From an uncultured Alphaproteobacteria bacterium (GTDB taxonomy: Bacteria > Pseudomonadota > Alphaproteobacteria > RF32 > CAG-239): a DNA stretch of 64,000 nt. Shown piece after piece: positions 12,866 through 29,589 of this stretch. Within the stretch, counting starts at the first letter, position 1. Every line of letters starts with the position of its first letter. Where the stretch lies: contig CALXRQ010000003.1 of the NCBI GenBank assembly GCA_944390895.1, positions 5,550 through 69,549 of the forward strand. Reading direction: 5' to 3'. The translations under genes were made by a program, and so were the position numbers. Below the pieces are notes generated by a model. The model did no database searches, was not told the DNA's origin, and saw only the letters and a program-made list of their open reading frames with translations.

Positions 12866-13693
12866 ATGAAAAAAATTGTTAAATATGCGCTTGGAATTGC
12901 AGTTGTGGTTTATGTCGGTTTTTGCTCGTTGGTTTATTTCTGTCCGCAGTATTTCTTTTACAATCCGACGCATCGGGCTTCAAACTTGGAATATGCCCGC
13001 CAAAACGGATATCCGGCCGACCGCGTCGATTATAAGTCGGCTGACGGAAAAGAGCTTTATGCCTGGTACACCGCACCCGGATATCAGCATAAAATCATCG
13101 TCTTTATGCATGGCAATTCTTATAACATTGAAAAGTTTTACCATAAGATGATACCTTTTGTCGAAGCCGGTTATGGCACGTTGATGCCGGAATACCGCGG
13201 TTTTGGCGACATCAGCGGCAAAATTCGCCAGCAAAACCTTGAAAACGATGCGCTGGCCGCCGTCAATTATCTGCATTCTCTGGGCTATAAAAATTCGGAT
13301 ATAATCGTTTACGGTATGTCTTTGGGGTCGCATATGGCGGTCAATACCGTCTGGCAGCTGCAAAAAGAAGCCCCTTTTGCGGCGCTGGTCTTGGAAGTTC
13401 CGTTTGACAGCCTGCTCAATACGGTCAAGGCCGTGGTGCCGGTTCCCCTGCCTTTTGATTATATTGTCCGCGACAAATATGATAATACTTCTATGGTTAA
13501 AGACATAAGAAGCCCGGTTCTCGTTATGGGCGGCAGCCAGGATCCGACGGTTCCGGTTCATTTGGCAAAAAATTTGTTTGCTTTGGCGCCGCAGCCCAAA
13601 AAAATGATTATATATGAAGGCGGAGCCCACAACGATTTGTACAACTTCCGCAACTATAACGATGTTTTGAACTGGCTGGCAAAAGGAAAATAA
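12866..13693 (+). CDS. Alpha/beta hydrolase fold protein (membrane-anchored esterase/lipase-like)
   Basis: N-terminal TM. GMSLGS nucleophile elbow (GxSxG). HGN oxyanion region. 275 aa. Confidence 0.6.
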   Translation: MKKIVKYALGIAVVVYVGFCSLVYFCPQYFFYNPTHRASNLEYARQNGYPADRVDYKSADGKELYAWYTAPGYQHKIIVFMHGNSYNIEKFYHKMIPFVEAGYGTLMPEYRGFGDISGKIRQQNLENDALAAVNYLHSLGYKNSDIIVYGMSLGSHMAVNTVWQLQKEAPFAALVLEVPFDSLLNTVKAVVPVPLPFDYIVRDKYDNTSMVKDIRSPVLVMGGSQDPTVPVHLAKNLFALAPQPKKMIIYEGGAHNDLYNFRNYNDVLNWLAKGK

Positions 13694-16600
13694 TGAAAAA
13701 ACTGAGTCCCAAAATATATAAAATCCGCAAGATAATGGATTTTACGGGAGTCATCTTCCTGGTTTTGCTGCTTCTGTTTATCTGGCAGCTTTATCGGGGG
13801 CCCATCGCCGTGCCTTTTTTGAAGCCGTATATCATCAAGGCGCTGAACCGTGATGACAGTCAGTATCAGGTCACGCTGGATGCGGTCAACATTGAGCTGG
13901 TTCGCTCCATTCGTCCGCTCAAGATTATTGCGACCAACGTGGATTATCGGAAAAATGACGGGGAGATTAAGATTACGGCGCCGAAAACATCTTTGTCTTT
14001 CAGCATTAAGGCTCTGCTGAAGGGCGTGATTGCGCCGAGTTCGGTGAACGTCATCAACCCGACGGTGTATATTTTTACCGATTACGGCACCAAAGAAGTC
14101 GGTAAAAATGAGGTCAACCAGAAAAAACTGGAATATTACTTTGACTATTTTGAAGAGTTTATTGAGCGTTTTAATTCTGAGGACAAATCATATCCCGAAA
14201 GCTATATTAACGATATCACAATCGAAAATGCGGAAGTGGAGTTTCATGAGGTCGATTTGGGGCGCAAATGGGTATTTTCGGATCTGAATTACAAATTCGA
14301 ACGCAACTTTTTGAACATAGAGAGCGAATTTAATGCCTTGATAAAAAAAGACGATCGTCTGTCTTCCGTCGGGGTGGACGCCGAATATCGCCCGTCTTCT
14401 GAAAAACTGGCTTTTCGTTTTTATTTTTCGGATTTGGTTCCCGATGATATTATCAATACCGTGCTTGGCGAAGACGAAGCCCGCGACTGGTATAAAATCA
14501 ATGTTCCCGTCAGCGGTCGGGTCGATGCCCTCATAAATTTTGACCAAGTGCTCAAAAACAAGGATAATGTTATCAAAAGTCTGGATACGGCAGTTGAAAA
14601 AATAAACTTTAATTTTGAAGGCGGCAGCGGTACGGTAGCCTTTTCCGAGCATGAAGACCAAAATTATAATATCAGCGGATTTATGCTGGAGGGCGATTTG
14701 ACCGGCGGTCTTGACAAACTGAAAATTGAAAATGCCGGTTTTGACCTCGGCGGCCAGAAAGCTTCTTTCAGCGTTTATGTCAGCGGCGTTAAGGATTATC
14801 TGCTGAAAAAATCCGTTGAAAATTTGAATGTGAACATAAACGCCAAGGTTGCCGCGCTTAAGTTTGACGAACTTTACGACTACTGGCCCCGCTACCTCGG
14901 CACGGTTGCCTGGGATTGGTGCAAGGAAAGCATTTCCGGCGGAGAAATTAAAAATGCCGATTTCAATTTTGATTTCGGTTACGATACCAAAAACAAAAAA
15001 TTTGCATTTCGCAAATTGTCGGGCACCGGACAGATTGCCGATTCTAATTTGAACTATCTGGAAGGTATGCCGTTGATTACCAATATGTACGGCACGGCAA
15101 CGTTTACGAACGATACGATTAAGATTGACGTGGACAAGGCCGTTTCGGACAATGTTTTCGTTAACGGCGGATATGTGCGTCTGTATGATTTGGATAAGTA
15201 CGACAATTTTGCCGATATCAGTCTTGAAGCGGAATCCAGCATAGCCGACGCGCTTAAGCTCATTGACCATAAGCCGTTGAACTATGCCTCCGAAATGGGG
15301 CTCAAACCCGATGATATGAAAGGCAATGCCAAAACCAAACTGAAGCTTGACTTTGAATTGAAAAAAAATCTGGAGCCGGAAGAAGTAAAGGTTGATGTCA
15401 AGTCCGAATTAACAGACGTTGAAATCCCTGATATCATTGACAAGAAAGCGGTAAAGGCACCCAAGCTTGCTCTGGATGTTACCAACAGCGGCATGAATCT
15501 CAGCGGCGATATAGAGCTGGACGGCATTCCGGCCAAATTGGTCTGGAACGAAAACTTTACCGACAAAAAGTACAAAAGCCGCTATAATATATCTTTCAAA
15601 CTTGACGATGACATCAAAAAGAAGCTGGGCATCAACATAGATGCGATTAATGCGCCGTATATCAGCGGCTATATTTTGGTTGATGCCGAGATTACCAGTT
15701 TTGACGATAACCGCCTGCAAATAGACATCAACGGCAATCTGGCCAATGCCGCGGTTGACTATTCGTTTCTGGGACTGAGAAAATATTTGAATCAGCCCGG
15801 AAAAGTTAATGCGCGGCTGAATTTCAAAGACAACAAGCTGACGGATATTCCGAACCTGAGCATTACCAAACACGACTTCAGTCTTAAGGGCAAAATCGGT
15901 CTGAACAAGGATGGCGACGTCAATCTGGTGGATATTTACAGCATCAAGGCGCCCAAAACCGATGCCAAGGCCAAAATTGAATTGAGCTATAAGCCAAAGA
16001 AAAAAGTCAAAATCAACGTCTCGGGCAACAGCTACGATTTGTCGGAGTTTTTTGCCAAAGATGAAAATGCAAAATCCAAGCAGTCTTCGTCCGGCAAAAA
16101 GCGTTCAAAAAACGCTGACAAAGACGAACTGGAAGACGTGACCGATACGGATATCTTCATTGCCGTAAACAGCTTGTGGACCAACGAGTTTGTTTCGGTC
16201 AAAAACTTTGCCGGTTCGGCTCAGCTGCGTAACGGCGTCGGAATTCAGGAAATGCATCTGATCGGCAATTTCGGCGGGGATTCAAAACGTTTCCTGAAAC
16301 TGGACTATACGCCGCGGGCCAATAAGGAATATCTGCTGGCTGTGGAAAGTAACGATGCCGGCGGCACGCTGAAGTTTTTGCGGGTTTATGACTATATGCG
16401 CGGCGGCCGTTTAAGCATCAACGGCAAACGGGATAAAAACAAAAAATTTGTCGGCCACGCCAAAATCCGTGATTTCAGCATCTATAATACGCCGATTTTG
16501 GCCAAGCTGCTGACGGTTGCCTCTTTTACCGGAATGTTGAATCTTCTGACCGGTGAAGGAATGACGTTTTCGCATTTCGACGCGCCGTTCGAATATCAAA

Positions 16601-16920
16601 ATCAGGTGTTGACCCTGAAAGATTCTAAAGCGTTCGGCAATGTTATGGGGCTCACGGCCAAAGGCACCTATGACCGCGAATATGAGGAGTTTAATATTGA
16701 AGGAACCATTGCGCCGGCTTATGGATTGAATACGTTTATCGGCAAAATCCCTGTCGTCGGAAACCTGCTCAGCAGCAAAGACGGAACGGTTTTTGCCGCC
16801 AATTATTCAATCACCGGTTATCTGGATGATCCCAAAATCAGCATCAACCCGTTGTCTGCGTTAAGTCCGGGATCGTTAAAAGACTTGTGGTCTTCGCTGT
16901 TTGGAGGCAATGACAAATAA
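13693..16920 (+). CDS. AsmA/YhdP-like large envelope protein (DUF3971/AsmA_2-like C-terminus)
   Basis: 1075 aa. Single N-terminal TM (VIFLVLLLLFIWQLY). Long beta-rich body. Conserved C-terminal ...ITGYLDDPKISINPLSALSPGSLKDLW, typical of the AsmA-like/YhdP family. Confidence 0.5.
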   Translation: MKKLSPKIYKIRKIMDFTGVIFLVLLLLFIWQLYRGPIAVPFLKPYIIKALNRDDSQYQVTLDAVNIELVRSIRPLKIIATNVDYRKNDGEIKITAPKTSLSFSIKALLKGVIAPSSVNVINPTVYIFTDYGTKEVGKNEVNQKKLEYYFDYFEEFIERFNSEDKSYPESYINDITIENAEVEFHEVDLGRKWVFSDLNYKFERNFLNIESEFNALIKKDDRLSSVGVDAEYRPSSEKLAFRFYFSDLVPDDIINTVLGEDEARDWYKINVPVSGRVDALINFDQVLKNKDNVIKSLDTAVEKINFNFEGGSGTVAFSEHEDQNYNISGFMLEGDLTGGLDKLKIENAGFDLGGQKASFSVYVSGVKDYLLKKSVENLNVNINAKVAALKFDELYDYWPRYLGTVAWDWCKESISGGEIKNADFNFDFGYDTKNKKFAFRKLSGTGQIADSNLNYLEGMPLITNMYGTATFTNDTIKIDVDKAVSDNVFVNGGYVRLYDLDKYDNFADISLEAESSIADALKLIDHKPLNYASEMGLKPDDMKGNAKTKLKLDFELKKNLEPEEVKVDVKSELTDVEIPDIIDKKAVKAPKLALDVTNSGMNLSGDIELDGIPAKLVWNENFTDKKYKSRYNISFKLDDDIKKKLGINIDAINAPYISGYILVDAEITSFDDNRLQIDINGNLANAAVDYSFLGLRKYLNQPGKVNARLNFKDNKLTDIPNLSITKHDFSLKGKIGLNKDGDVNLVDIYSIKAPKTDAKAKIELSYKPKKKVKINVSGNSYDLSEFFAKDENAKSKQSSSGKKRSKNADKDELEDVTDTDIFIAVNSLWTNEFVSVKNFAGSAQLRNGVGIQEMHLIGNFGGDSKRFLKLDYTPRANKEYLLAVESNDAGGTLKFLRVYDYMRGGRLSINGKRDKNKKFVGHAKIRDFSIYNTPILAKLLTVASFTGMLNLLTGEGMTFSHFDAPFEYQNQVLTLKDSKAFGNVMGLTAKGTYDREYEEFNIEGTIAPAYGLNTFIGKIPVVGNLLSSKDGTVFAANYSITGYLDDPKISINPLSALSPGSLKDLWSSLFGGNDK

Positions 16921-17424: not shown

Positions 17425-17670
17425 TTATTCCGGTTTGATGAACATACTGCGCAAGGCTGCCATTCGTTTCTGTTTCAGAATCAGTTCATTTCTGCGGGTT
17501 TGTTTTTGCAGCCGCCGCTGTTTGGCAATGAGTAAAGTTTCTTTCAGACATTGACGATCCAAAGAAAGGCCGATGTTTTCCAACTCGTAGTCACGGGGGA
17601 GATAATTATATTTGTTTTCCAGTTCATTCAGTTTGGCGTCACTGAGTTGCAGATATTTTTTTATGTTCAT
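17425..17670 (-). CDS. Hypothetical small basic coiled-coil protein downstream of the phage repressor
   Basis: 81-aa ORF on the same strand immediately after the CI-like gene. K/R/Q-rich. Confidence 0.3.
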   Translation of the reverse strand: MNIKKYLQLSDAKLNELENKYNYLPRDYELENIGLSLDRQCLKETLLIAKQRRLQKQTRRNELILKQKRMAALRSMFIKPE

Positions 17671-17682
17671 AAGATTCTCTTT

Positions 17683-18312
17683 TTATTGTCCGGCCCAGAC
17701 GATGCGGTGTACCAGTTTCACGCTGCTGATGGCAATTTCGATATTTTCGTTGTCGCGCAACAGGTGTTTCAATATCAGGCTTGCAGCCGTTCTACGGACA
17801 AATTCATATAAGACGGCGGTACAGTCTTTTTTATAAACGACAACCCGATCTCCTTTACGGATGTCAGAGTTGCTGGCCGCCAAAATCACCGAACCGTCAC
17901 GATAGAGAGGAAAATATTCCTCATTGTCGATCTCTATGGCATAAAGCATATCTTTGTTGTCCGGAAAAATGATTTTTTTCCAGGAAGACGTGTTAAGTTC
18001 TCTGGCGATAAAGTCGTTTTTTTTGTTCAACTGGGAATATTTTATAAACGGAATCAATGGTTCGCTGCAGTCAATATCATCTTCAGCAGTGTCGCCCAGA
18101 GAGTAAAATTCTTCAAAATTCAGGCCGCATGTTTCCAGGATTTTGTTTATGCTTTCCATGGATGGCCATCTCTTGTTTCCGTCGGGACGGGTTCTCTTGC
18201 TTTTGTTAAATGTGGTCGCGTCAAGCCCGGCCAGTTTTGCCAGTCCAGAAGGTGACAATCCTTTGCTCTTGGCCAACTTATCAACAGCATTCCATATCTG
18301 TTCGTATTTCAT
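17683..18312 (-). CDS. Phage CI/LexA-type repressor (N-terminal HTH, C-terminal S24 peptidase-like domain)
   Basis: 209 aa. N-terminal HTH region WNAVDKLAKSKGLSPSGLAKLAGLDATTFNKSKR. C-terminal S24-like fold ...GDRVVVYKKDCTAVLYEF.... Divergent from the phage-like gene block. Confidence 0.78.
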   Translation of the reverse strand: MKYEQIWNAVDKLAKSKGLSPSGLAKLAGLDATTFNKSKRTRPDGNKRWPSMESINKILETCGLNFEEFYSLGDTAEDDIDCSEPLIPFIKYSQLNKKNDFIARELNTSSWKKIIFPDNKDMLYAIEIDNEEYFPLYRDGSVILAASNSDIRKGDRVVVYKKDCTAVLYEFVRRTAASLILKHLLRDNENIEIAISSVKLVHRIVWAGQ

Positions 18313-18370
18313 ATGAATACCTCTCCGTCTTGTTTTCTGGACGATATAATCACTATAAAATATTTTTAAA

Positions 18371-18447
18371 TAGGAATCAATTCTTTTTTATGTTGAAATT
18401 CCTACAACCTTATATATAAATTCTATTGGTTAACAATTAATTAATTG
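18371..18447. promoter_or_regulatory. Candidate operator/switch region between repressor and first rightward gene
   Basis: Inverted repeat TAGGAAT-N20-ATTCCTA (18371-18404) and a perfect 14-bp palindrome CAATTAATTAATTG (18434-18447) in an AT-rich divergent intergenic region. Confidence 0.35.
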
Positions 18448-18457
18448 AGAGGGAGAA

Positions 18458-18787
18458 ATGAGGGAAGATTTTGAACCTTTTGAAAACGCTGAAGAAGTTT
18501 GGTTCTGGTTTTGCACTTCAGCTTCTGCCAGAAGCGAAGGTCTGCGCTCAAAGAGCGATTATTGGGGAAAGCCGCGGTGCTGTGAACTGCCTGATATTCA
18601 GCAGATTATAAAGCAGATGAAACGTAACCGTCATCTGAACAACCGCCAGTTGCGCGTTATGGTCAAATGGGGACAGCTTCAGGTTCCGCCCTATTATGAG
18701 CGCAGCGCCAAAAGAAGCGAAATACGTCTGTGGGAAACGGCGATGCTGAATTTTGAGTTTTATCTGAAACGGCGACGCATACTTTAA
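18458..18787 (+). CDS. Hypothetical phage-like protein
   Basis: 109-aa ORF, first gene rightward of the repressor. GGAG-like SD (gagagggagaaATG). Confidence 0.45.
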   Translation: MREDFEPFENAEEVWFWFCTSASARSEGLRSKSDYWGKPRCCELPDIQQIIKQMKRNRHLNNRQLRVMVKWGQLQVPPYYERSAKRSEIRLWETAMLNFEFYLKRRRIL

Positions 18788-18798
18788 CGGGAGGCCTT

Positions 18799-19206
18799 AT
18801 GCGTAATTTGTATGATGATGTTTATTTCCGCCGCGGATATGTCGTATTTGAGGACAATACCACTCTGTGGTGGCTGCGTTTGCTGAAAAAGGGTTTCCGT
18901 CATTGTTATGTTCTGATAAAGCTGCGCGGAGGAAGAAATTCCTGGCTGGAGATCAATCCGCTGTCCAATCAGCTTGTTGTTTGCGAACATTATTCCTCGT
19001 CAGAGGAAGATTATCTTATCCGTTTGCGCCGGCGCCAGAATTGCCGTGTCATTGCCGCAGATTTTGTTCAGGCGCCGCCAAAATGTGCTCCGCTGGGCGT
19101 TTTCAGCTGTGTGGAATTTGTCAAAAGAATAGTCGGCATACATTGTTTTGGTATAATTACACCTTATCAATTGTATAAAAAATTAAAAAAAATCTCAAAA
19201 TTGTAG
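18799..19206 (+). CDS. Hypothetical phage-like protein
   Basis: 135-aa ORF tightly following the previous gene. Confidence 0.45.
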   Translation: MRNLYDDVYFRRGYVVFEDNTTLWWLRLLKKGFRHCYVLIKLRGGRNSWLEINPLSNQLVVCEHYSSSEEDYLIRLRRRQNCRVIAADFVQAPPKCAPLGVFSCVEFVKRIVGIHCFGIITPYQLYKKLKKISKL

Positions 19207-19217
19207 GAAAAAAGTCT

Positions 19218-19246
19218 TGACAAGCTGATTTTTTTCATATATACCG
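19218..19246 (+). promoter_or_regulatory. Sigma-70-like promoter upstream of the terminase region
   Basis: TTGACA (19218-19223), then a 15-nt spacer, then TATATA. Confidence 0.3.
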
Positions 19247-19336
19247 TAAAACATCACTTGCTAGTAGTGTATCTTAAATAAGTTAAGGGCTCTTTAACCG
19301 CATGCCGGTTTGGAGCTTTTTTTATTGGAGTTTTTT

Positions 19337-19651
19337 ATGTCTGCAAGGAAAATAAAAACGCTTCAGTCTTTGAAAGATGCATTGAAAAAAACGCTGCCGC
19401 AGCAAATCTCAAAAGTAATCCGCAGTTATGAGGATTTTTCCGAACAGCCGGTGCCCTGCGATGCCAAGGGGTTCGGAGCGCATCACAATGCCTGCAAATC
19501 GGCGGTGGTGCATGCCGAAACGCTTCTCAAGCTGGCCCGCTGGACCGAAGACGAGATAAAACTGCCGCCTGCGGAAGAAACGGACGGTTTTTTAGAACGT
19601 TTGCTTAACGAAGCAGAAGCGGAATGTGAACAATTTAAGGACGAAGAATGA
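19337..19651 (+). CDS. Hypothetical protein immediately upstream of, and overlapping, the terminase large subunit; possible small terminase subunit
   Basis: About 104 aa from MSARKIKTLQ (GGAG SD). Its stop overlaps the terminase ATG (ATGA). The positional argument is the only evidence. Confidence 0.35.
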   Translation: MSARKIKTLQSLKDALKKTLPQQISKVIRSYEDFSEQPVPCDAKGFGAHHNACKSAVVHAETLLKLARWTEDEIKLPPAEETDGFLERLLNEAEAECEQFKDEE

Positions 19652-21150
19652 CAAGGTTGCGAAAGAAAATCGGATTTTTCGGCTTTGTTTATGTCTGGAT
19701 GCGGCTTCAGGGATTAAACGTTCCCAAACACCAGAGAAAAATGTCACTCTGGCTGGAAAAACTCTGGAGCGGAACAGCTTCAAGGCAAGGTCTGCTGATG
19801 GCGTTTCGCAACTCCGGCAAGTCGACGATCGTCGGCTTGTTTTGCGCCTGGTGCCTGTATCGCAATTCTGCTCTGCGGATATTGGTTATGGCTGCGGATC
19901 ATGCGCTGGCAAAAAAGATGGTGCGCAATGTCAAGCGTATTATTGAACGCCATCCGCTTACCGCTGATATGAAACCGCCGCATCAGGACCAATGGGCTTC
20001 AGATCAGTTTACGATTCTTCGCGAGCGTGAACTGCGTGATCCGTCCATGCTGGCCAAAGGTCTGGGAGCCAACATCACCGGTCTGCGTGCGGATTTGATT
20101 ATCTGCGATGATGTGGAAGTGCCCAAAAATTGTGATTCGGCACTGAAGCGGCAGGAACTCAGAGCCCGGTTGGACGAGCTGGACTATATTCTGACGCCGG
20201 ACGGCATGCAGCTTTATATCGGGACGCCGCATACGTTTTATACCATATATCAAACCGGCTTTGATCGGTCACGGCCGGAACAGAAACCGTTTTTGCTGGA
20301 TTTTCAAAAAATGGAGATTCCCATTTTGGATGAAAACGGCAAATCAAACTGGCCGGAGCGTTTTTTTTTTTTTTTTTTTTCTTCTGTCCGGCAGCGTTCG
20401 GGGGAGAACAAATTCCTTTCGCAGATGATGCTGAAACCGGTTAACATCAAAGACAGTATTCTGGATCCGGAACGCCTTTGTCCGTATGACGGCGAAATCA
20501 GCGTCAGCTCTGCCAACGGACGCGATTGTTTGAAAATCGGCGGCCGCCGGATGCTTTCGGCCTCCTGCTGGTGGGATCCGTCTTTTGCTTCGGCCAAAGG
20601 GGACAATTCGGTCATTGCCTGTGTCTTTGTCGATGAGGAAGGACGCTATTGGCTGCATGATTTGGAGTATATCAAAATCAAAGGCGGTTCGGATGAAAAC
20701 ATTGCTTCGCAGCAATGCGGCGTTGTCGCCGCTTTCCTGGAACGCAATTGCCTGTCGTCGGTCAGGATTGAGGTCAACGGCATCGGAAAGTTTCTGCCGG
20801 GGATATTAAAACAGACGCTGCAAAAGAGAAATTACCGGGCCGCGGTGCTGGAAGCCAGTTCCAATGCCAATAAGGCGTTGCGCATTGTTCAGGCTTTTGA
20901 AGTGTTGCTGGCTGAAAGGGCTTTGAATGTTCATAAGAAAATATGGTCGACGCCGTTCATTGAAGAAATGCGCGAATTTTGTCCCGGCGGCACTCATCAC
21001 GACGATGCTCTTGACGCTGTCGCCGGATGTCTGGCTTCCGAGCCTGTGCGTCTGCCTGCTTTTGTGTCGGACGTTTCGCAAACGCGCATAAACACATGGC
21101 AGGGCACGAACCGTCAGTTTGCCGCCCGAACCGGATTTGACGTACTATAA
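19648..21150 (+). CDS. Phage terminase large subunit
   Basis: 500 aa. Walker A-like FRNSGKSTIVG. Walker B LIICDDVE. C-terminal nuclease-like region. Contains an in-frame T20 tract encoding FFFFFF. Confidence 0.82.
   Translation: MTRLRKKIGFFGFVYVWMRLQGLNVPKHQRKMSLWLEKLWSGTASRQGLLMAFRNSGKSTIVGLFCAWCLYRNSALRILVMAADHALAKKMVRNVKRIIERHPLTADMKPPHQDQWASDQFTILRERELRDPSMLAKGLGANITGLRADLIICDDVEVPKNCDSALKRQELRARLDELDYILTPDGMQLYIGTPHTFYTIYQTGFDRSRPEQKPFLLDFQKMEIPILDENGKSNWPERFFFFFFSSVRQRSGENKFLSQMMLKPVNIKDSILDPERLCPYDGEISVSSANGRDCLKIGGRRMLSASCWWDPSFASAKGDNSVIACVFVDEEGRYWLHDLEYIKIKGGSDENIASQQCGVVAAFLERNCLSSVRIEVNGIGKFLPGILKQTLQKRNYRAAVLEASSNANKALRIVQAFEVLLAERALNVHKKIWSTPFIEEMREFCPGGTHHDDALDAVAGCLASEPVRLPAFVSDVSQTRINTWQGTNRQFAARTGFDVL
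20361..20380 (+). repeat. Homopolymeric T20 tract inside the terminase CDS
   Basis: gagcg-T20-cttctg counted directly from the sequence. The frame is maintained (ERFFFFFFSSVRQ). Confidence 0.9.
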
Positions 21151-21162
21151 GGGATATAAACG

Positions 21163-21450
21163 ATGTTTAGTGAATTAACCAGCTGGGTAGCCATGGTCGA
21201 GCTCCCGGTTTTTGTGACATTGTTTCGAATGATGGCCAGAAACCGCAAAGAAACGGATCAAGATCTGGCGGTTTTGAAAAACAGTTCGGAAAAAGGCATG
21301 GCTTCCGTCAGGGAAGCTTTGGCTGACTTCAAGCTGCACGTTGCCAGAAACTATGTTTCCATCAACTATCTTAAAGATGTTGAAGACCGTTTAACCAATC
21401 ATTTATTGAGAATTGAAAAGAAACTAGACGAGGTGGGAAAAAACAGATGA
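21163..21450 (+). CDS. Hypothetical small membrane protein (phage-like)
   Basis: 95 aa. N-terminal hydrophobic segment WVAMVELPVFVTLF. Overlaps the next gene start. Confidence 0.4.
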   Translation: MFSELTSWVAMVELPVFVTLFRMMARNRKETDQDLAVLKNSSEKGMASVREALADFKLHVARNYVSINYLKDVEDRLTNHLLRIEKKLDEVGKNR

Positions 21451-21878
21451 CAAACTTAACAACCGATATTCTGGCCAAAACCATTTGGGGAGAGGCCAGG
21501 GGAGAACCGCTGGCCGGACAGGAGGCCGTGGCCATGGTCATTCTGAACCGGGTGGCGTTCAGCCGGAAACGCGGCGGAAAATACTGGTGGGGAAACGATA
21601 TTGCCGGGGTTTGCCAGAAACCGCGGCAGTTTTCTTGTTGGAACACCGATGATCCGAACTATCGCAAATTGCTGCGGGTTAACGATTCCGATCCTGTATA
21701 CGCGGCCTGCAAAAGGATAGCCGGACGGGCGGCCGCCGGTCTGCTGGAAGACAAAACCTGCGGCGCCACGCATTATCATGCCAGGAACGTTTGTCCCCGG
21801 TGGTCAATTGGCAAGATTCCCTGCGCGGAAATCGGCAGCCATGTTTTTTATAACGATATTGAGGAGAGCAAACGGTGA
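21447..21878 (+). CDS. Cell wall hydrolase, SleB/Hydrolase_2 family (endolysin-like)
   Basis: LAKTIWGEARGEPLAGQEAVAMVILNRV...QFSCWN...ATHYH matches the SleB-type hydrolase signature. Confidence 0.8.
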   Translation: MTNLTTDILAKTIWGEARGEPLAGQEAVAMVILNRVAFSRKRGGKYWWGNDIAGVCQKPRQFSCWNTDDPNYRKLLRVNDSDPVYAACKRIAGRAAAGLLEDKTCGATHYHARNVCPRWSIGKIPCAEIGSHVFYNDIEESKR

Positions 21879-22405
21879 TAAGCAAAGTTTTGGGAAAAAT
21901 CGGCCTGCCGATTTTGATAAAGTTTGTAAGTTCATCTTTGGGGCGTCTGGATGCCGATTGCGCCAAAAAAGCAGGTTCGGCGCTGCTTGATGTCAGCAGC
22001 GCCATCAAAAACCGCGAAATTTCTGCCGAGCAGATTTCCGAAGTCAATCGTCATGCGGAACGAATGCAGGAAATTGAAGGCGAATATGATGACAAAACCT
22101 TGGCAGTGATTAATGAAACCATTCGCCGCGAGATTGCTTCCGAGGATCGTTTTGTCCGCTTTTGGCGTCCGGCGTTCGGTTATTCGGTTGCCGCAGCCTG
22201 GCTGCTGACCATGTCTACAATTTGTTATGTGGTTTTGGCCGATTATCCCAATGCCGCCGATATTATCGGCGCTTTGGTGGAAACTACGTCGTTGTGGAGC
22301 GTGGCCCTGGGCGTACTGGGCATTTCCGTTGTCAAGCGCAGTCAGGAAAAGCAGAATGCCAAAAAGGAAGACATCTTGTCGAAAGTGGTCAATAAGATAA
22401 CCTAA
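21875..22405 (+). CDS. Putative membrane protein (possible holin-like lysis partner)
   Basis: 176 aa with two C-terminal hydrophobic helices. Translationally coupled to the lysin. The holin call rests on position only. Confidence 0.35.
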   Translation: MISKVLGKIGLPILIKFVSSSLGRLDADCAKKAGSALLDVSSAIKNREISAEQISEVNRHAERMQEIEGEYDDKTLAVINETIRREIASEDRFVRFWRPAFGYSVAAAWLLTMSTICYVVLADYPNAADIIGALVETTSLWSVALGVLGISVVKRSQEKQNAKKEDILSKVVNKIT

Positions 22406-22407
22406 AC

Positions 22408-22441
22408 TTAACTGCCCCGATTTTTTTTTCGGGGCTTTTTT
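22408..22441 (+). terminator. Rho-independent terminator
   Basis: GCCCCGAtttttttttTCGGGGCttttttt. Confidence 0.7.
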
Positions 22442-22468
22442 TATAACATAAATTATGAGGAGAAAGAA

Positions 22469-22681
22469 ATGGGAGGAGTATTCAGCGGCGGTTCGCCGAA
22501 AATAGAAGTCCCGGCGGCAGACACTTCGGCGCAGGATGCCGAAAAAAAGGCGGAAGAAGAGCGCAAAAAAGCGCTTGAGCGCCAGCGCCGGGGAATGGAC
22601 AGCACCATCCGCACGTCTTACAACGGATTGCTGGATTTGAAAAATATGGAACTGAACCGCAAAAAGCTGCTCGGAGAATAA
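22469..22681 (+). CDS. Hypothetical small charged protein preceding the portal gene
   Basis: 70 aa. GAGGAG SD. Confidence 0.4.
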   Translation: MGGVFSGGSPKIEVPAADTSAQDAEKKAEEERKKALERQRRGMDSTIRTSYNGLLDLKNMELNRKKLLGE

Positions 22682-22684
22682 CCG

Positions 22685-24193
22685 ATGAACGGTAAAATAG
22701 AAAAACTTATCGAACGCTTCAAAAGAGCGGAGAACCGAAAGCAGCAATGGCTTCCCCACTGGCAGGAATGTTACGAATATGCGCTGCCGCAGCGGGAAAA
22801 TGTCGGGATGACAAGTATCGGCACCGATTACGGAAGCAAAAAAAATCTGCATTTGTTTGACGGAACCGCACCTGATGCCGTCGATCAGCTGGCGTCTTCG
22901 CTTTTGTCGGAACTGACGCCGCCCTGGGCCAAATGGTTTGGCCTTAAAGGCGGTGAAGAACTCTCGGAGGAAGAACGTTCCCGGGTTGCGGAAACATTGG
23001 AAAAAACCTCGGAAATTATGATGCAGAATTTTGAGCATTCCAATTTTGCCGTGGAAATACATCAGTGCTATCTGGACTTGGTTACGGCCGGCACTGCCTG
23101 CCTGATGTTTGAAGAAGCGCCGGTCGGCGAGGCGTCGGCTTTCCGCTTTTATGCGGTTCCGTTGCGCGAGATTGCGTTGGAAGAAAGTCCGGACGGCAAA
23201 ATAGACACCACTTTCCGCTGTTCGCAAATCGGTTTGGAAAGTATTCGTCTCCGGTTTCCGAAAGCGGAAGTGCCGCCATTGTGGGAGGAGCGTTTTCGCT
23301 CCGACGGCGATTTTCGTCTGACCCTGATTGAGGCCGTTATTCCGCGGCACGGCAGTTTCGGGCAGTCGGGATATGAATATACGGCTTTCGTCTGGGACGA
23401 AAATTCCGGTCCCGAAGACAATCTGGTGCTGCGGGAAGGCGTTTTTGAAACCTCGCCGTTCATAAATTTCCGCTGGCTGAAAGCGCCGGGTGAGGTTTAC
23501 GGTCGTTCGCCGGTAATGAAAGCTTTGCCTGACATTAAAACCGCCAACAAGGTGGTGGAACTGATATTGAAAAACGCGTCAATTTCGGTGACCGGCATCT
23601 GGCAGGCCGATGATGACGGCATTCTCAATCCGGCCAACATCAAGCTCGTTCCCGGCGCCATCATTCCCAAGGCGGTCGGTTCCAAGGGACTGACGCCGCT
23701 TGAGGCACCGGGAAAATTTGACGTTTCGCAGTTGATTTTGGAAAATCTGCAAAGCCGGATAAACCACGCGCTGCTGGCCGATCGCCTTTCGCAGGTAAAT
23801 GTTCCGAATATGACGGCAACCGAGGTGTTGGAACGCTCGGCGGAAATTGCCCGCATCCTGGGCGCCAGCTTCGGACGTCTGCAAAGCGAACTTCTGACCC
23901 CGCTGCTGAAAAGGGCTTTTTACATTCTGCGTCGCCGCGGCGATATTATGAACTTTGATTTGGACGGCAAGATTGTCGACCTGCAGTATAAGTCTCCGCT
24001 GGCTTTGCTTCAGGCCAGACAAGACGTCAGCAATATCAGCGAATGGATCAATCTGGTAACGGCGTTGGGCATGGACGGGCTTTCGGCGGTCAATATGTTT
24101 GAAGCCGCCAAAACCCTGGGACGGATTCTGAACGTTCCGGCAACGCTGATTAACGAACAACCGCAGGGAAATATTGCCGATGCCGCTGAATGA
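22685..24193 (+). CDS. Phage portal (head-to-tail connector) protein
   Basis: 502 aa. Its position before scaffold/capsid and its size fit a podovirus connector. The assignment rests on context and general resemblance, not on a strict motif. Confidence 0.7.
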   Translation: MNGKIEKLIERFKRAENRKQQWLPHWQECYEYALPQRENVGMTSIGTDYGSKKNLHLFDGTAPDAVDQLASSLLSELTPPWAKWFGLKGGEELSEEERSRVAETLEKTSEIMMQNFEHSNFAVEIHQCYLDLVTAGTACLMFEEAPVGEASAFRFYAVPLREIALEESPDGKIDTTFRCSQIGLESIRLRFPKAEVPPLWEERFRSDGDFRLTLIEAVIPRHGSFGQSGYEYTAFVWDENSGPEDNLVLREGVFETSPFINFRWLKAPGEVYGRSPVMKALPDIKTANKVVELILKNASISVTGIWQADDDGILNPANIKLVPGAIIPKAVGSKGLTPLEAPGKFDVSQLILENLQSRINHALLADRLSQVNVPNMTATEVLERSAEIARILGASFGRLQSELLTPLLKRAFYILRRRGDIMNFDLDGKIVDLQYKSPLALLQARQDVSNISEWINLVTALGMDGLSAVNMFEAAKTLGRILNVPATLINEQPQGNIADAAE

Positions 24194-24416
24194 ATATAAC
24201 GCCTCGGCATTGCCGGATGAAGAAGTCCGGCGGATGTTTGCCGGGTGTTTTATAACCGGAGAGGGCAGATTCGTCCTCTCTTTTTTGAAAAAAGTAACTC
24301 TTGAGCGCTGCCTCGGTCCCGATGCCTCAGATGCCGAACTTAGGTATCTGGAAGGGCAGAGACGTTTAGTGAAATATATTGAGGCGCTCAGCGGTTGCAA
24401 AAAATCTGATTTTTAG
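24174..24416 (+). CDS. Hypothetical small protein overlapping the portal 3' end
   Basis: 80-aa ORF in an alternate frame. Confidence 0.3.
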   Translation: MPMPLNEYNASALPDEEVRRMFAGCFITGEGRFVLSFLKKVTLERCLGPDASDAELRYLEGQRRLVKYIEALSGCKKSDF

Positions 24417-24428
24417 AAAGGAACAAAA

Positions 24429-25139
24429 ATGCAAAGTCAGGAAAATGAAAATCTGCTGAATGTTTCCGCATCGCGGCAGTCTTCCGGCCAGACGTCCGGG
24501 CGTCCGTCCGGTCTGCCGGATGCTTTCTGGGACGAACAGAAAAAACAGGTGAAACTTGATGAACTTATTGCCGCTTATAATGATCTGGCCAAACGGGACG
24601 ACAATCTGGTGGAGACCAATCTCCGCAATATTCCCGAAAGCTATGACCAGTATCGCATCAACATTCCGAGCCCGCTGTTGGATGTGGATGAAGACATCTT
24701 AAAAAGGTTCTATGAAAAAGGATTTACCAACGAGCAGGCGCAGCTGGTCTATGATTTGGCGGGCGAAAGGGTTCTGCCGGTACTGGATGAGATGAGCGTC
24801 AATTTTGAAGCGGAACGCCAGCTGGAAAAACTGGCTCGTCACTTTGGCGGCCGCGACAAGTTTAACGAGGTTTCGCGTCAGCTTTCGGCCTGGGCAAAAC
24901 AAAATGTCAATCCCGAGGTCTATGATGCGCTGGCCTCCACTTCCGAGGGCGTCATTGCGCTTTACAATATGATGTCTTCCGCCGAACCGTCCTTGTTGAA
25001 AGAGGGCGCGGAGACCGGAGAACTGAGTGAGGCCAGTCTGCGGAAAATGATGGAAGATCCGCGCTATTGGCGGGATAAGGACAGCGCTTATATCGCCAAA
25101 ATAACCCGCGGTTTTGAAAAGCTTTATCCGGAAAAATAA
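24429..25139 (+). CDS. Putative scaffolding (capsid assembly) protein
   Basis: 236 aa, acidic and predicted helical. Lies between portal and capsid, as in T7-like gene order. Confidence 0.45.
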   Translation: MQSQENENLLNVSASRQSSGQTSGRPSGLPDAFWDEQKKQVKLDELIAAYNDLAKRDDNLVETNLRNIPESYDQYRINIPSPLLDVDEDILKRFYEKGFTNEQAQLVYDLAGERVLPVLDEMSVNFEAERQLEKLARHFGGRDKFNEVSRQLSAWAKQNVNPEVYDALASTSEGVIALYNMMSSAEPSLLKEGAETGELSEASLRKMMEDPRYWRDKDSAYIAKITRGFEKLYPEK

Positions 25140-25211
25140 AATAGTAACGTGTTTTAACCTGAAAAGTCCGCTTCTCCGAAAGCGGATTTTTGCAAATATA
25201 AGGAAAAGATT

Positions 25212-26036
25212 ATGTCTACAGAAGTATCCAAGTCGTTTATCAAAAATTTTGAAGCCGATGTGCATCTGGCTTATCAGCAGATGGGTTCAAAATTGAAAAA
25301 TACCGTTCGTTATAAAAATAATGTCAAAGGTTCGTCAACCGTGTTTCAGCGCGTCGGCAAGGGCATTGCTTCCGGCAAGGCGCGTCACGGCCTGGTTCCG
25401 GTCATGAGCATTGATCATACGCCGATTGAGTGCGAATTGCAGGACTATTATGCCGGTGATTGGGTCGATGCTTTGGACGAGTTGAAGCTCAGCATTGACG
25501 AACGCCGCGTTATCGCTTCTTCAGGCGCTTATGCGCTGGGACGCAAAACCGACGAACTGATTATTGACGCGCTGAGCAAAGCCTCAAATGCCAACGATGT
25601 CGGCGATTATACCAAGGCTTTGTCCAAAACCGACATCTTGAACGCTTTTGCCAAGCTCAACGAAAATGACGTTCCCGACGACGGACAGCGTTTTGGCATT
25701 GTCGGCCCGTTGCAATGGAATGCGCTGCTCAACATTGCCGAGTTTTCCAATTCTGATTATGCCGGTGACAATCTACCGTTCCTGAAGGGCACCGAAAGCC
25801 GCAAATGGCTGGGCATTAACTGGATTATGCATACCGGTTTGCCGCTTTCCGGCACCAACCGCGACTGTTTTATCTTTCATAAAACGGCGGTCGGCCATGC
25901 TTCGGGGCAGGACGTCAAGTCTGACATCACCTGGCACGGCGACCATGCGGCGCACTTTGTCAATAATATGATGAGCCAGGGTGCCTGCCTGATTGATGAA
26001 ACCGGCATTGTCCGCATCAAATGCAAAGAAGCTTAA
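25212..26036 (+). CDS. Putative major capsid protein
   Basis: 274 aa. Position after the scaffold gene. Strong SD. Followed by a small gene and a strong terminator, as with T7 gene 10 and its T-phi terminator. Confidence 0.55.
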   Translation: MSTEVSKSFIKNFEADVHLAYQQMGSKLKNTVRYKNNVKGSSTVFQRVGKGIASGKARHGLVPVMSIDHTPIECELQDYYAGDWVDALDELKLSIDERRVIASSGAYALGRKTDELIIDALSKASNANDVGDYTKALSKTDILNAFAKLNENDVPDDGQRFGIVGPLQWNALLNIAEFSNSDYAGDNLPFLKGTESRKWLGINWIMHTGLPLSGTNRDCFIFHKTAVGHASGQDVKSDITWHGDHAAHFVNNMMSQGACLIDETGIVRIKCKEA

Positions 26037-26061
26037 TTTTTTATTATCAAGGAGAAAACAT

Positions 26062-26322
26062 ATGTCATTAAACACCAAAGATTTAAGCGTGATGGCCTAC
26101 GCCAACGGCTTTACGCTGTGGAGCTATTCCACGGCCGATGCGTTAACCGCCGTGAAAGGAGCCGGCTATTTTAACGATGCGGCGCCGTTTGTCCGTCCCG
26201 GCGATATGATTTTGGTTTCCGCTTCCAAAGACAGCGCGATTGAACCTGCCGTGCTGGCGGTAACCGCCGTTGCCGCCGCATCCGTTACGGTCACTTCCGT
26301 TGCGCCGGCCGCGGCAGCCTAG
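26062..26322 (+). CDS. Small structural protein with Ala/Val-rich C-terminal tail (minor capsid or decoration candidate)
   Basis: About 86 aa from MSLNTKDL (GGAG SD). C-terminus VLAVTAVAAASVTVTSVAPAAAA. Confidence 0.4.
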   Translation: MSLNTKDLSVMAYANGFTLWSYSTADALTAVKGAGYFNDAAPFVRPGDMILVSASKDSAIEPAVLAVTAVAAASVTVTSVAPAAAA

Positions 26323-26345
26323 TTTTTAACCCGATACCTGTTAGC

Positions 26346-26385
26346 AAATGATGAGAGAGTCCCCCTGTGGGACTCTCTTTTTTTT
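26346..26385 (+). terminator. Strong rho-independent terminator after the capsid module
   Basis: AGAGAGTCCCCctgtGGGACTCTCTttttttttt. Confidence 0.75.
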
Positions 26386-26408
26386 TACAAAACGAAGGAA
26401 TTTATAAT

Positions 26409-26978
26409 ATGAACTATTCCAGCATCAGTTTATGTTCCAAGGCTCTGCTTAAAATCGGAGCTTCCAGCATCACTTCTTTTGAGGAGGGAACGGCTGAGGG
26501 GGAAGTTGCCGCCAATCTGTACCCTTATATTCGCGACGGTCTGCTGTCTTCATATCCGTGGAGTTTTGCCGTGGCGCAGGTACGTCTGGGGCGCCTGGAA
26601 ACCGCGCCGCTGGCAGATTACCGTTATGCCTATCTGCTGCCCTCTGATCTTTTGCGGATTATCTCCGCCGGTTCTCAGGGGCGGGGACGCGGTGTGGAAT
26701 ATCGTGTCGTTGAAGATAAGCTCCATACCGATATGACGGAGGTTAACCTGACCTATATTTACCGTCCCGATGAAAGCGTTTTTCCGGCTTATTTTTGCGA
26801 AGCGCTGATTAATAAGCTGGCGTTTGAGTTTTGCATTCCGCTGACAGAGAGTTCGACCCGGGCCGAATTTTTAAGCAAAATTGCCGAAGATTCGGTCAGT
26901 CGTGCCCGTTCGATTGATGCGCAGCAGGATACGCCCGGACGTTTTGAAGACTTTACGCTGGTGGAGGTGCGAAAATGA
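26409..26978 (+). CDS. Tail tubular protein A-like (T7 gp11-sized)
   Basis: 189 aa from MNYSSISL (AAGGAA SD). The track's upstream ATG lies inside the terminator hairpin. Assignment by synteny and size only. Confidence 0.4.
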   Translation: MNYSSISLCSKALLKIGASSITSFEEGTAEGEVAANLYPYIRDGLLSSYPWSFAVAQVRLGRLETAPLADYRYAYLLPSDLLRIISAGSQGRGRGVEYRVVEDKLHTDMTEVNLTYIYRPDESVFPAYFCEALINKLAFEFCIPLTESSTRAEFLSKIAEDSVSRARSIDAQQDTPGRFEDFTLVEVRK

Positions 26979-28873
26979 ATCAGATTTCGGTCAAAACCAA
27001 TTTCACTTCGGGGCAATTGTCTCCGAATTTGTATGGCCGCGGAGATTTGCGCATTTACGAAAACGGAGCGCGTACGCTGCAAAATGTCATCATCTATCCG
27101 ACCGGCGGCGTCTCCAGGCGTCCGGGACTGCAATATATTGACGAGCTTTCCGGCCCCGGACGTCTGATTGCTTTTGAGTTCAATACCGAACAAACCTATC
27201 TGCTGTGCTTTTCCGATAAAAAACTGCGGGTTTATAAGGACGGAGTCAATATCAGCGAGCTTGAAACGCCGTGGACGGAAGAGCAGATAAAGAAAATAAA
27301 CTGGACCCAGAGCGCAGACACGCTGCTGGTTGTTCATCCCGATGTGGAGCCGCGCCAGATCAGCCGCAATGCCAATGAGGTCTGGATGATTGAACCTTGG
27401 GAATATTATCAGAAGGACGGTTGTCTGTATTGCCCTTATTTCAATTTTTATCAAAACAAGGTCAAGCTCACGCCCGGCGGTACCGGCGGAAACATAACCC
27501 TGACGGCGGATGCGGATATTTTTTCGGCTGCGTTTGTCGGTGTTCGCATTAAAATCAATTCGGGAGAAGCGGTTATAACTTCCGTGACCGATTCCAGACA
27601 TTGTCAGGCCGATGTCAAAAAAGGGCTTTCCGGCACCGGCGCGTCTTCAGATTGGGAAGAGCAGGCCTTTTCGCCCGTCCGCGGATATCCGAACTCGGTC
27701 ACCTTTCACCAGGACCGGATGGTTATCGGCGGTTCTAAGAGTCTGCCTAATCGTTTGTGGCTTTCCAAGTCGTCGGATTTGTTCAATTTTGACATCGGCA
27801 CCGGTCTGGATGACGAAGCGATTGATTTTGCCATTTTGTCCGATCAGGTAAACGCCGTGACCAATGTCGTTTCGACCAGACACCTGCTGGTTTTTACTAC
27901 CGGCGCCGAATGGATGGTGTCGGGCGAACCGCTGACGCCGTCCAGCATCAGGCTTAACCGCCAGACCAACATCGGCAGCTATGCCAAATATTCTCTGCCG
28001 CCGCAAAATATTGACGGCGCCACGACCTTTATTTCGCAAAACGGCCGCCAGTTGCGCGAATTTTTGTATACGGATGTTGAACAGGCCTATCAGGCCAAGG
28101 ATCTGACGCTGATGTCCGACAATATAATCGACAAGCCGGTGGACGGCGTGTACTATCAGGACAACAGCGTATTGTACATAATTTTGGAAGACGGTACCGT
28201 CTCCTGCCTGACCACTTATCGCACCGAGGAAGTCAACGCCTGGAGCAAACTCAGGACGCAGGGCGATTTTACGTCCGTTGCCGCCATCGGAGACGGGCTT
28301 TATTTTATTGTCCGCCGCCGGGAGAATTATTATCTGGAGCGTTTTAGTCCCGGATGTTTTGTGGACGGCTGTGTTTCTCTCCGTTCCGAAACGCCCAAAA
28401 AAGACTGGGACGGGTTGGACTATCTGGAAGGCGAGAAGGTGCAGGTTGTCGCCGATGATTTTACCGTCGGCGATTTCGAGGTAAAAAACGGCCGGATAAC
28501 TTTGTTTGAAGAAGCTTCGGACATAACGGTCGGACTGCCTTATGAACATATTATCGAGCCGCTGCCTTTTGTCTGCGAGGCCAATAAACCTTATCCGCCG
28601 AAAGCCTACCGCATCATTCAGGGAATTTTCCGCATTATCTCGTCAAAATCGTTGAAGCTTAATTACGGCAGCGGTTATGTCGAAGTTCCGCTGAAAAAAA
28701 TGTATTGGGATCAGATTCTCGATTCGCCGCCGCAATTGTTTAACGGAGATGTCATTTTACGCTCCATCGGCTGGATTCGCGATTTGGAAAAACCGATGTG
28801 GAGTATCAAAAGCGAAATTCCCTGCGAATTTACGCTGCTTTCCGTTGTTAACGAAATCAAAACCAAAGATTAG
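26975..28873 (+). CDS. Tail tubular protein B-like (T7 gp12-like)
   Basis: 632 aa, beta-rich. ATGA-coupled to the upstream gene. Assignment by synteny only. Confidence 0.45.
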   Translation: MNQISVKTNFTSGQLSPNLYGRGDLRIYENGARTLQNVIIYPTGGVSRRPGLQYIDELSGPGRLIAFEFNTEQTYLLCFSDKKLRVYKDGVNISELETPWTEEQIKKINWTQSADTLLVVHPDVEPRQISRNANEVWMIEPWEYYQKDGCLYCPYFNFYQNKVKLTPGGTGGNITLTADADIFSAAFVGVRIKINSGEAVITSVTDSRHCQADVKKGLSGTGASSDWEEQAFSPVRGYPNSVTFHQDRMVIGGSKSLPNRLWLSKSSDLFNFDIGTGLDDEAIDFAILSDQVNAVTNVVSTRHLLVFTTGAEWMVSGEPLTPSSIRLNRQTNIGSYAKYSLPPQNIDGATTFISQNGRQLREFLYTDVEQAYQAKDLTLMSDNIIDKPVDGVYYQDNSVLYIILEDGTVSCLTTYRTEEVNAWSKLRTQGDFTSVAAIGDGLYFIVRRRENYYLERFSPGCFVDGCVSLRSETPKKDWDGLDYLEGEKVQVVADDFTVGDFEVKNGRITLFEEASDITVGLPYEHIIEPLPFVCEANKPYPPKAYRIIQGIFRIISSKSLKLNYGSGYVEVPLKKMYWDQILDSPPQLFNGDVILRSIGWIRDLEKPMWSIKSEIPCEFTLLSVVNEIKTKD

Positions 28874-28888
28874 AAAGGAAAACCGACC

Positions 28889-29251
28889 ATGGGTGGAATC
28901 TCAATGGCAACGGCCGCCGGAACCGGTTTGGCTGCCATGAATTTGTTAAACGATACCAGAAAAAACAATCAGCAGATGAAATATCTGCGTCAGGATCAGC
29001 AGGCGGCCGCGGCCAAACGCAAAAACCTGCTCAACCAGCAGTTGGCAACGCGCCGTGCCGGCCTTGGCGCCATGGGCATTACGTCCAGCAAGTCGTCTGC
29101 CGCCGTGCAGCAGCGCCTGGCGCGGGAGACTTATGACGACATTGCCGAAGATGAGACGGATTATAAACGCAGATACGCCGGTTTGCAGCAGCAAAACAGC
29201 AGCAATTTATTCAATACCGCGCTGTCCGCAGCCGGAAAACTGATTAAGTGA
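28889..29251 (+). CDS. Hypothetical virion-associated protein
   Basis: 120 aa, Gln/Ala-rich. Confidence 0.4.
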   Translation: MGGISMATAAGTGLAAMNLLNDTRKNNQQMKYLRQDQQAAAAKRKNLLNQQLATRRAGLGAMGITSSKSSAAVQQRLARETYDDIAEDETDYKRRYAGLQQQNSSNLFNTALSAAGKLIK

Positions 29252-29255
29252 GGAA

Positions 29256-29456
29256 ATGACCATGCCCCGAACTAAAATGACCTATGCTGAAAAACGCCGC
29301 CGTGCTTATAATCGGCAGATACCGCTGACAGATCAGCTCGACGCCGTTCTGAAAGCCTTTGATATGGTGCTGCAAGACGGCGGTGACCTGCCTTACGAGT
29401 TGATAGACGTTATTGAAAAATGGCAGGACATCAAAGCCAAATATCCCAAGGAATGA
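29256..29456 (+). CDS. Hypothetical small protein
   Basis: 66 aa. Confidence 0.35.
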   Translation: MTMPRTKMTYAEKRRRAYNRQIPLTDQLDAVLKAFDMVLQDGGDLPYELIDVIEKWQDIKAKYPKE

Positions 29457-29492
29457 CAACCGGCGCCTCTTGACGGGGCGCCGTTTTTTATT
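29457..29492 (+). terminator. Rho-independent terminator closing the phage-like block
   Basis: CGGCGCCtcttgacgGGGCGCCGttttttat. Confidence 0.75.
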
Positions 29493-29589
29493 GTTTCATA
29501 AGGCGTTTAATCCTTTTGTTTACGTTTTATTTAAACAGTTTGCATATATTTCAAACGAAAAATAAGTTTTAGCGGAACGGAAGTGTCAA

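Follow-up and report, generated by a model that had tools for sequence, protein, structure and literature searches.

A T20 homopolymer in a T7-type terminase gene of a gut alphaproteobacterium is very probably a sequencing or assembly artifact

The homopolymeric contingency loci of Neisseria, Haemophilus, and Campylobacter share several characteristic features: (i) a long poly-G/C tract is located within an open reading frame, (ii) gain or loss of one nucleotide shifts the frame, (iii) the tract is inherited and varies in length among strains, and (iv) the protein produced in the ON state is functional. A run of 20 thymines in the window analyzed here, a 64,000-nt stretch of DNA from an uncultured alphaproteobacterium, resembles these loci in the first two features. 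Unlike them, it is present in one record, it replaces conserved residues, and its length is that of the non-repeat sequence that has been replaced.

The gene that carries the run belongs with the T7 gp19/DNA maturase B family, with which it shares an N-terminal ATPase and a C-terminal RNaseH-like nuclease. It adjoins genes for a T7-like portal, scaffold, capsid, and nozzle, and it would be an unremarkable member of the family once the native sequence is restored.

Length-preserving artifacts of short-read base calling and consensus building form another class for comparison. The window tract is likewise a single-base block without indels, and it is confined to one assembly. Such artifacts are normally removed by coverage filters, whereas the window tract survived into the deposit. 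Kircher et al. (2011, PMC3163567) describe how transient imaging faults on Illumina instruments can obscure clusters for one or more cycles and so give rise to Ns and errors. Only general sources of this type were found in the literature, and no documented case of a T-specific poly-T artifact. From the comparisons described below, we conclude that the T20 run is very probably an artifact of base calling, assembly, or post-processing in one public assembly.

The terminase gene and the element that carries it

The gene, the run, and the surrounding phage-derived cluster are located in the window as follows.

19648..21150, plus strand: gene for a predicted T7-type terminase large subunit (TerL) of 500 aa, with phrog_38, Pfam, and T7-type structure matches; it carries the T20 run
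20361..20380, plus strand: T20 homopolymer, comprising the third base of R238, codons F239-F244, and the first base of S245
about 17425..29460: compact phage-derived cluster of about 12 kb that includes the TerL gene

The assignment of the gene is based on several matches. The open reading frame matches phrog_38 (4e-77), residues 9-203 match the T7 gp19 structures 4bij and 8dgc (E about 1e-22), the Walker A motif SGKST of the N-terminal ATPase is found at residues 56-60, and residues 308-459 correspond to the Pfam family Terminase_6C (PF17289), the C-terminal RNaseH-like nuclease. Judged by the presence of both the ATPase and the nuclease, the T20-bearing gene is a T7-type terminase large subunit, in agreement with the first-pass annotation of this DNA, which had called it a terminase large-subunit gene.

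The same annotation had placed the run at 20361-20380 between the flanks gagcg and cttctg, and both are exact in the window, where the wider context reads ...aactggccggagcg-T20-cttctgtccggcagcg.... This is the sole homopolymer longer than 9 bases in the 64 kb, the longest other run being of 9 bases, and an i.i.d. model gives an expectation of 3e-7 T20 or A20 runs per window. The run is read as R238 (cgT), F239-F244, S245 (Tct), and then S246, so that the frame is intact, and translation of the 500-aa open reading frame agrees with the peptide ERFFFFFFSS given in the annotation. Lengthening or shortening the run by 1 nt cuts the product to 259-265 aa, without the nuclease domain, and this bears out the earlier statement that any such change would truncate the terminase. 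The shifted frames stop after about 14-20 codons, without a conserved extension. No terminator-like site was found at the run in the intrinsic terminator check, the minus strand across A20 contains just mechanical open reading frames with poly-Lys, and the window holds no T-rich tract that could have acted as a donor.

The cluster encodes a CI/LexA-like repressor, three small open reading frames, TerL, an endolysin, a holin-like protein with a weak GTA_holin_3TM match, a T7-like portal, a scaffold, the major capsid protein, tubular tail protein A, a nozzle, and further small open reading frames. No integrase, replication, polymerase, internal-core, or tail-fibre genes were detected in it. It is flanked by a YhdP-family gene and a gene for a 161-aa protein on one side, and by an alpha/beta-hydrolase gene on the other. 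This location did not vary among the strains examined: the cluster was found there in each of them, and likewise at all ten places retrieved with the chromosomal 161-aa neighbor. None of the 10 places shown is an empty site, and no tRNA lies near the cluster. The host lineage is represented by a human-gut metagenome-assembled genome labeled 'uncultured proteobacterium' (L002, MGYG-HGUT-04400).

Selection on the element genes between strains is purifying, with dN/dS of 0.00-0.16 across the element and of 0.09-0.16 for TerL (tract masked). This podovirus-derived cluster of about 12 kb may have been domesticated as a particle or GTA-like element, or it may be a fixed cryptic prophage.

The tract position in related genomes

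The first-pass annotation had suggested comparing orthologous terminase genes and had taken absence of the tract from all related loci as the mark of an artifact. That comparison was carried out at the protein and DNA levels, and the T tract was found in none of 20 related loci and in none of the 120 listed homologs, which is the outcome the annotation had associated with an artifact.

At the protein level, a search with TerL returned 2,251 homologs at E <= 1e-10, of which 120 were listed (53-97% identity, nearly all close to 500 aa long). In these listed sequences, the site has the form WPERF-SxEKIA-S[IV]R-RSGENKF, or more generally F-[SP]xxxIxx-[IV]R, and neither poly-Phe nor a T tract is present in any of them down to 53% identity. 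Within a subset of 56 sequences, no variation is seen at R238 or F239, and at least 90% of the sequences conserve I244. The poly-Phe TerL has the same length as its relatives, and FFFFFS stands exactly at the position of SVEKIA. In an AlphaFold2 model of the native TerL (mean pLDDT 85, built from a 56-sequence alignment), the stretch 240-245 falls at the opening of helix 241-251, within a two-helix connector that leads from the last ATPase strand (220-224) to the nuclease domain, which starts from about 278. The position between the ATPase and nuclease parts proposed in the annotation is thus about right in this model. The in-frame product of the T20 gene would exchange six conserved residues of this connector, which the alignment and model do not present as the tolerant segment that a functional ON protein would call for.

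In the DNA of the nearest relatives, the flanks that border T20 in the window enclose a native 20-mer (GAGCG-TTTTTCGGTTGAAAAAATTG-CTTCTG), which encodes the conserved F-SVEKIA motif. The related loci comprised n=20 sites on 19 distinct contigs, drawn from assemblies of many samples (ENA, NCBI, JGI, and Logan), with 95-99.9% identity to the window. All 20 are native and always 20 nt long; 17 are identical, 3 differ by a single-base synonymous variant, and none contains a homopolymer longer than 9. Pattern scans that permitted any 0-30 nt between the flanks produced one match in GTDB genomes and one in JGI metagenomes, both of the native form, and no match in IMG/VR. A blastn search of GenBank phages with the TerL gene also gave no match.

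The poly-Phe protein (P0121) has an entry in the public protein collection, with NCBI and ENA as sources and one contig of 76,106 bp as its only location. Another protein of the same 90% cluster (P0127) is identical to the window TerL but for six residues and is found on 10 contigs. One of these contigs, the independent public scaffold L005 (ENA ERZ28613925 scaffold_310, 91.9 kb), aligns without gaps to window positions 9648-31150. The two sequences are identical at 21,492 of 21,503 positions; the 11 mismatches involve no change of length, all 11 lie within 20366-20380, and every one is a replacement by T, the bases replaced being C, G, G, G, A, A, A, A, A, A, and G. They define the following feature.

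20366..20380, plus strand: 15-nt substituted block, native CGGTTGAAAAAATTG replaced by T15 without an indel; it contains all 11 differences from L005

The start of the block is ambiguous between 20361 and 20366, as the native sequence has TTTTT at 20361-20365, and its end is exactly 20380. Across the relatives (0.3-5% divergent), the tract shows 10-11 mismatches per 15 nt, compared with a maximum of 2-7 elsewhere.

Origin of the T20 tract

The run is an in-place, same-length, all-to-T block that is unique to one record and lies on an otherwise identical background. Two observations characterize its origin: (i) confinement to one assembly, which is the mark of a production artifact, is seen in the poly-Phe form occurring on 1 contig and the native form on 19, and (ii) replacement by T at 11 of 11 changed positions in 15 nt, with no indel, is a pattern of position-wise miscalling and not of replication or repair. 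The first-pass annotation had offered a technical artifact as one of two explanations, and the absence of the tract from all relatives, together with the L005 comparison, in which 11 in-place changes to T are the only differences, favors that explanation. We infer that the block arose outside the cell, in base calling, assembly, or post-processing.

Under the artifact explanation, T would have been written over 15-20 successive positions in an ordinary terminase gene without altering their number. This may have happened through a transient imaging fault over consecutive cycles that was carried into a low-coverage consensus, or at a stage where masked or ambiguous positions were later written as one base. 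The true sequence of the strain would most likely be TTTTTCGGTTGAAAAAATTG, coding for the conserved ERF-SVEKIA-SVR, and the terminase would then be intact. Six adjacent radical replacements would also be out of character for this protein, because dN/dS is low for TerL as well as for the element genes as a whole. Since P0121 is publicly deposited, the error would be in the deposit and not in the preparation of the window. The deposit is also a point against an artifact, as the tract came through both assembly and submission, and short-read assemblers normally discard errors found in one read only.

A genuine change in the DNA of one strain is an unlikely alternative to the artifact explanation. 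It would be a recent complex lesion, either a patch replacement or a deletion with a compensating expansion, that damages the terminase, leaving a dead or dying gene copy without a regulatory role. The sequence is present in a deposited assembly, and an element without replication and integration genes might tolerate such a loss in a single lineage. On the other hand, 11 positions would have had to change to the same base at once, with the length kept exactly and zero other differences in 21.5 kb, and we know of no mutational process that acts in this way. The lack of a T-rich donor tract in the window and the purifying selection on the element within the species also argue against it. A real tract would be an oddity without a known mutational origin, but the evidence leaves little scope for this reading.

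Several specific routes to such a change were considered and rejected. Mutagenesis of the DGR type is A-specific and that of the deaminase type is limited to C->T and G->A, whereas C, G, and A have all become T here. Expansion of the native T5 to T20 with a compensating 15-nt deletion would call for two rare events on a zero-divergence background. On the technical side, a de Bruijn graph join through the homopolymer would fit T20 being k-1 at k=21, a value at which metagenome assemblers commonly start; this is speculation, and it leaves the exact native length unexplained.

The second explanation offered by the first-pass annotation was a built-in phase-variable ON/OFF switch, that is, a contingency locus at which slippage toggles the frame of the terminase and thereby particle production. 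A T20 tract inside a coding region would indeed be extremely prone to slippage, and the loss of the nuclease domain after a change of one nucleotide would provide an OFF state. Of the features that define a contingency locus, the long homopolymer in an open reading frame is the only one present. An orthologous tract with length polymorphism was found at 0 of 20 loci and in 0 of 120 listed homologs, and the three collection scans revealed neither the tract nor a length variant at the site. The in-frame 'ON' product would begin its connector helix with FFFFFS in place of the conserved SVEKIA. An origin by expansion is excluded, as the length is unchanged relative to the native sequence. Slipped-strand mispairing adds or removes repeat units and, to our knowledge, never substitutes bases in place. 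Because slipped-strand events alter repeat number, the in-place conversion of CGGTTGAAAAAATTG to T15 is not attributable to slippage. With relatives that lack length polymorphism, a preserved length, and an ON frame without six conserved residues, the proposed switch did not hold up and is very improbable at best. The same low probability applies to its most far-reaching form, in which T20 would be real, recently arisen, and hypermutable, and would stochastically silence the terminase, and with it particle production, of a GTA-like element of podovirus origin that is fixed in the chromosome of an alphaproteobacterium of the human gut.

A programmed site of transcriptional or translational slippage giving two terminase products is extremely improbable: long A/T runs are known to provoke RNA-polymerase slippage, but the existing frame already encodes the full-length product, the alternative frames stop within about 20 codons without a conserved extension, and the relatives have neither the run nor a conserved slippery sequence with an alternative product.

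With an artifact as the preferred explanation, the terminase of the element is to be treated as intact, and the public poly-Phe protein, represented by one NCBI/ENA record, as erroneous. The case matters mainly as quality control. It also shows how in-frame homopolymers can be checked when no reads are at hand, namely by looking in near-identical genomes for ordinary sequence of the same length at the site.

Strain variation of the element and its distant relatives

The regulatory end of the element differs from the rest in its divergence among strains. In comparison with L001 and L002, the region 17683-18787, which contains the repressor and a 109-aa open reading frame, has about 85-88% identity and dS about 0.8, whereas the structural genes have 97-99% identity and dS 0.03-0.15. 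This suggests that, within one species, the immunity module is mosaic or has recombined.

Gene calls also vary among near-identical strains. The YhdP-family gene (13693-16920) is called as 1075 or 1061 aa, and two of the small open reading frames as 142 or 135 aa (18799-19206) and 104 or 93 aa (19337-19651); these probably reflect start-site or indel differences. In one strain, L004 (ENA ERZ28613829 scaffold_1017), an additional OmpA/Opacity-like beta-barrel gene (20104-20700 of that contig) separates the end of the element from the hydrolase gene; it is missing from the corresponding window interval (29461-29508).

More distant TerL relatives, with identity of about 55%, were found in Terasakiella sp. 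SH-1 (L012) and Caenispirillum bisanense (L013), where they are located at the end of longer T7-like structural modules. These modules contain capsid and nozzle-sized genes and extra downstream genes, one of which in L013 has a weak match to Phage_T7_tail (PF03906), and their gene order is circularly permuted relative to the window cluster. Compared with these modules, the gut element looks like a reduced derivative.
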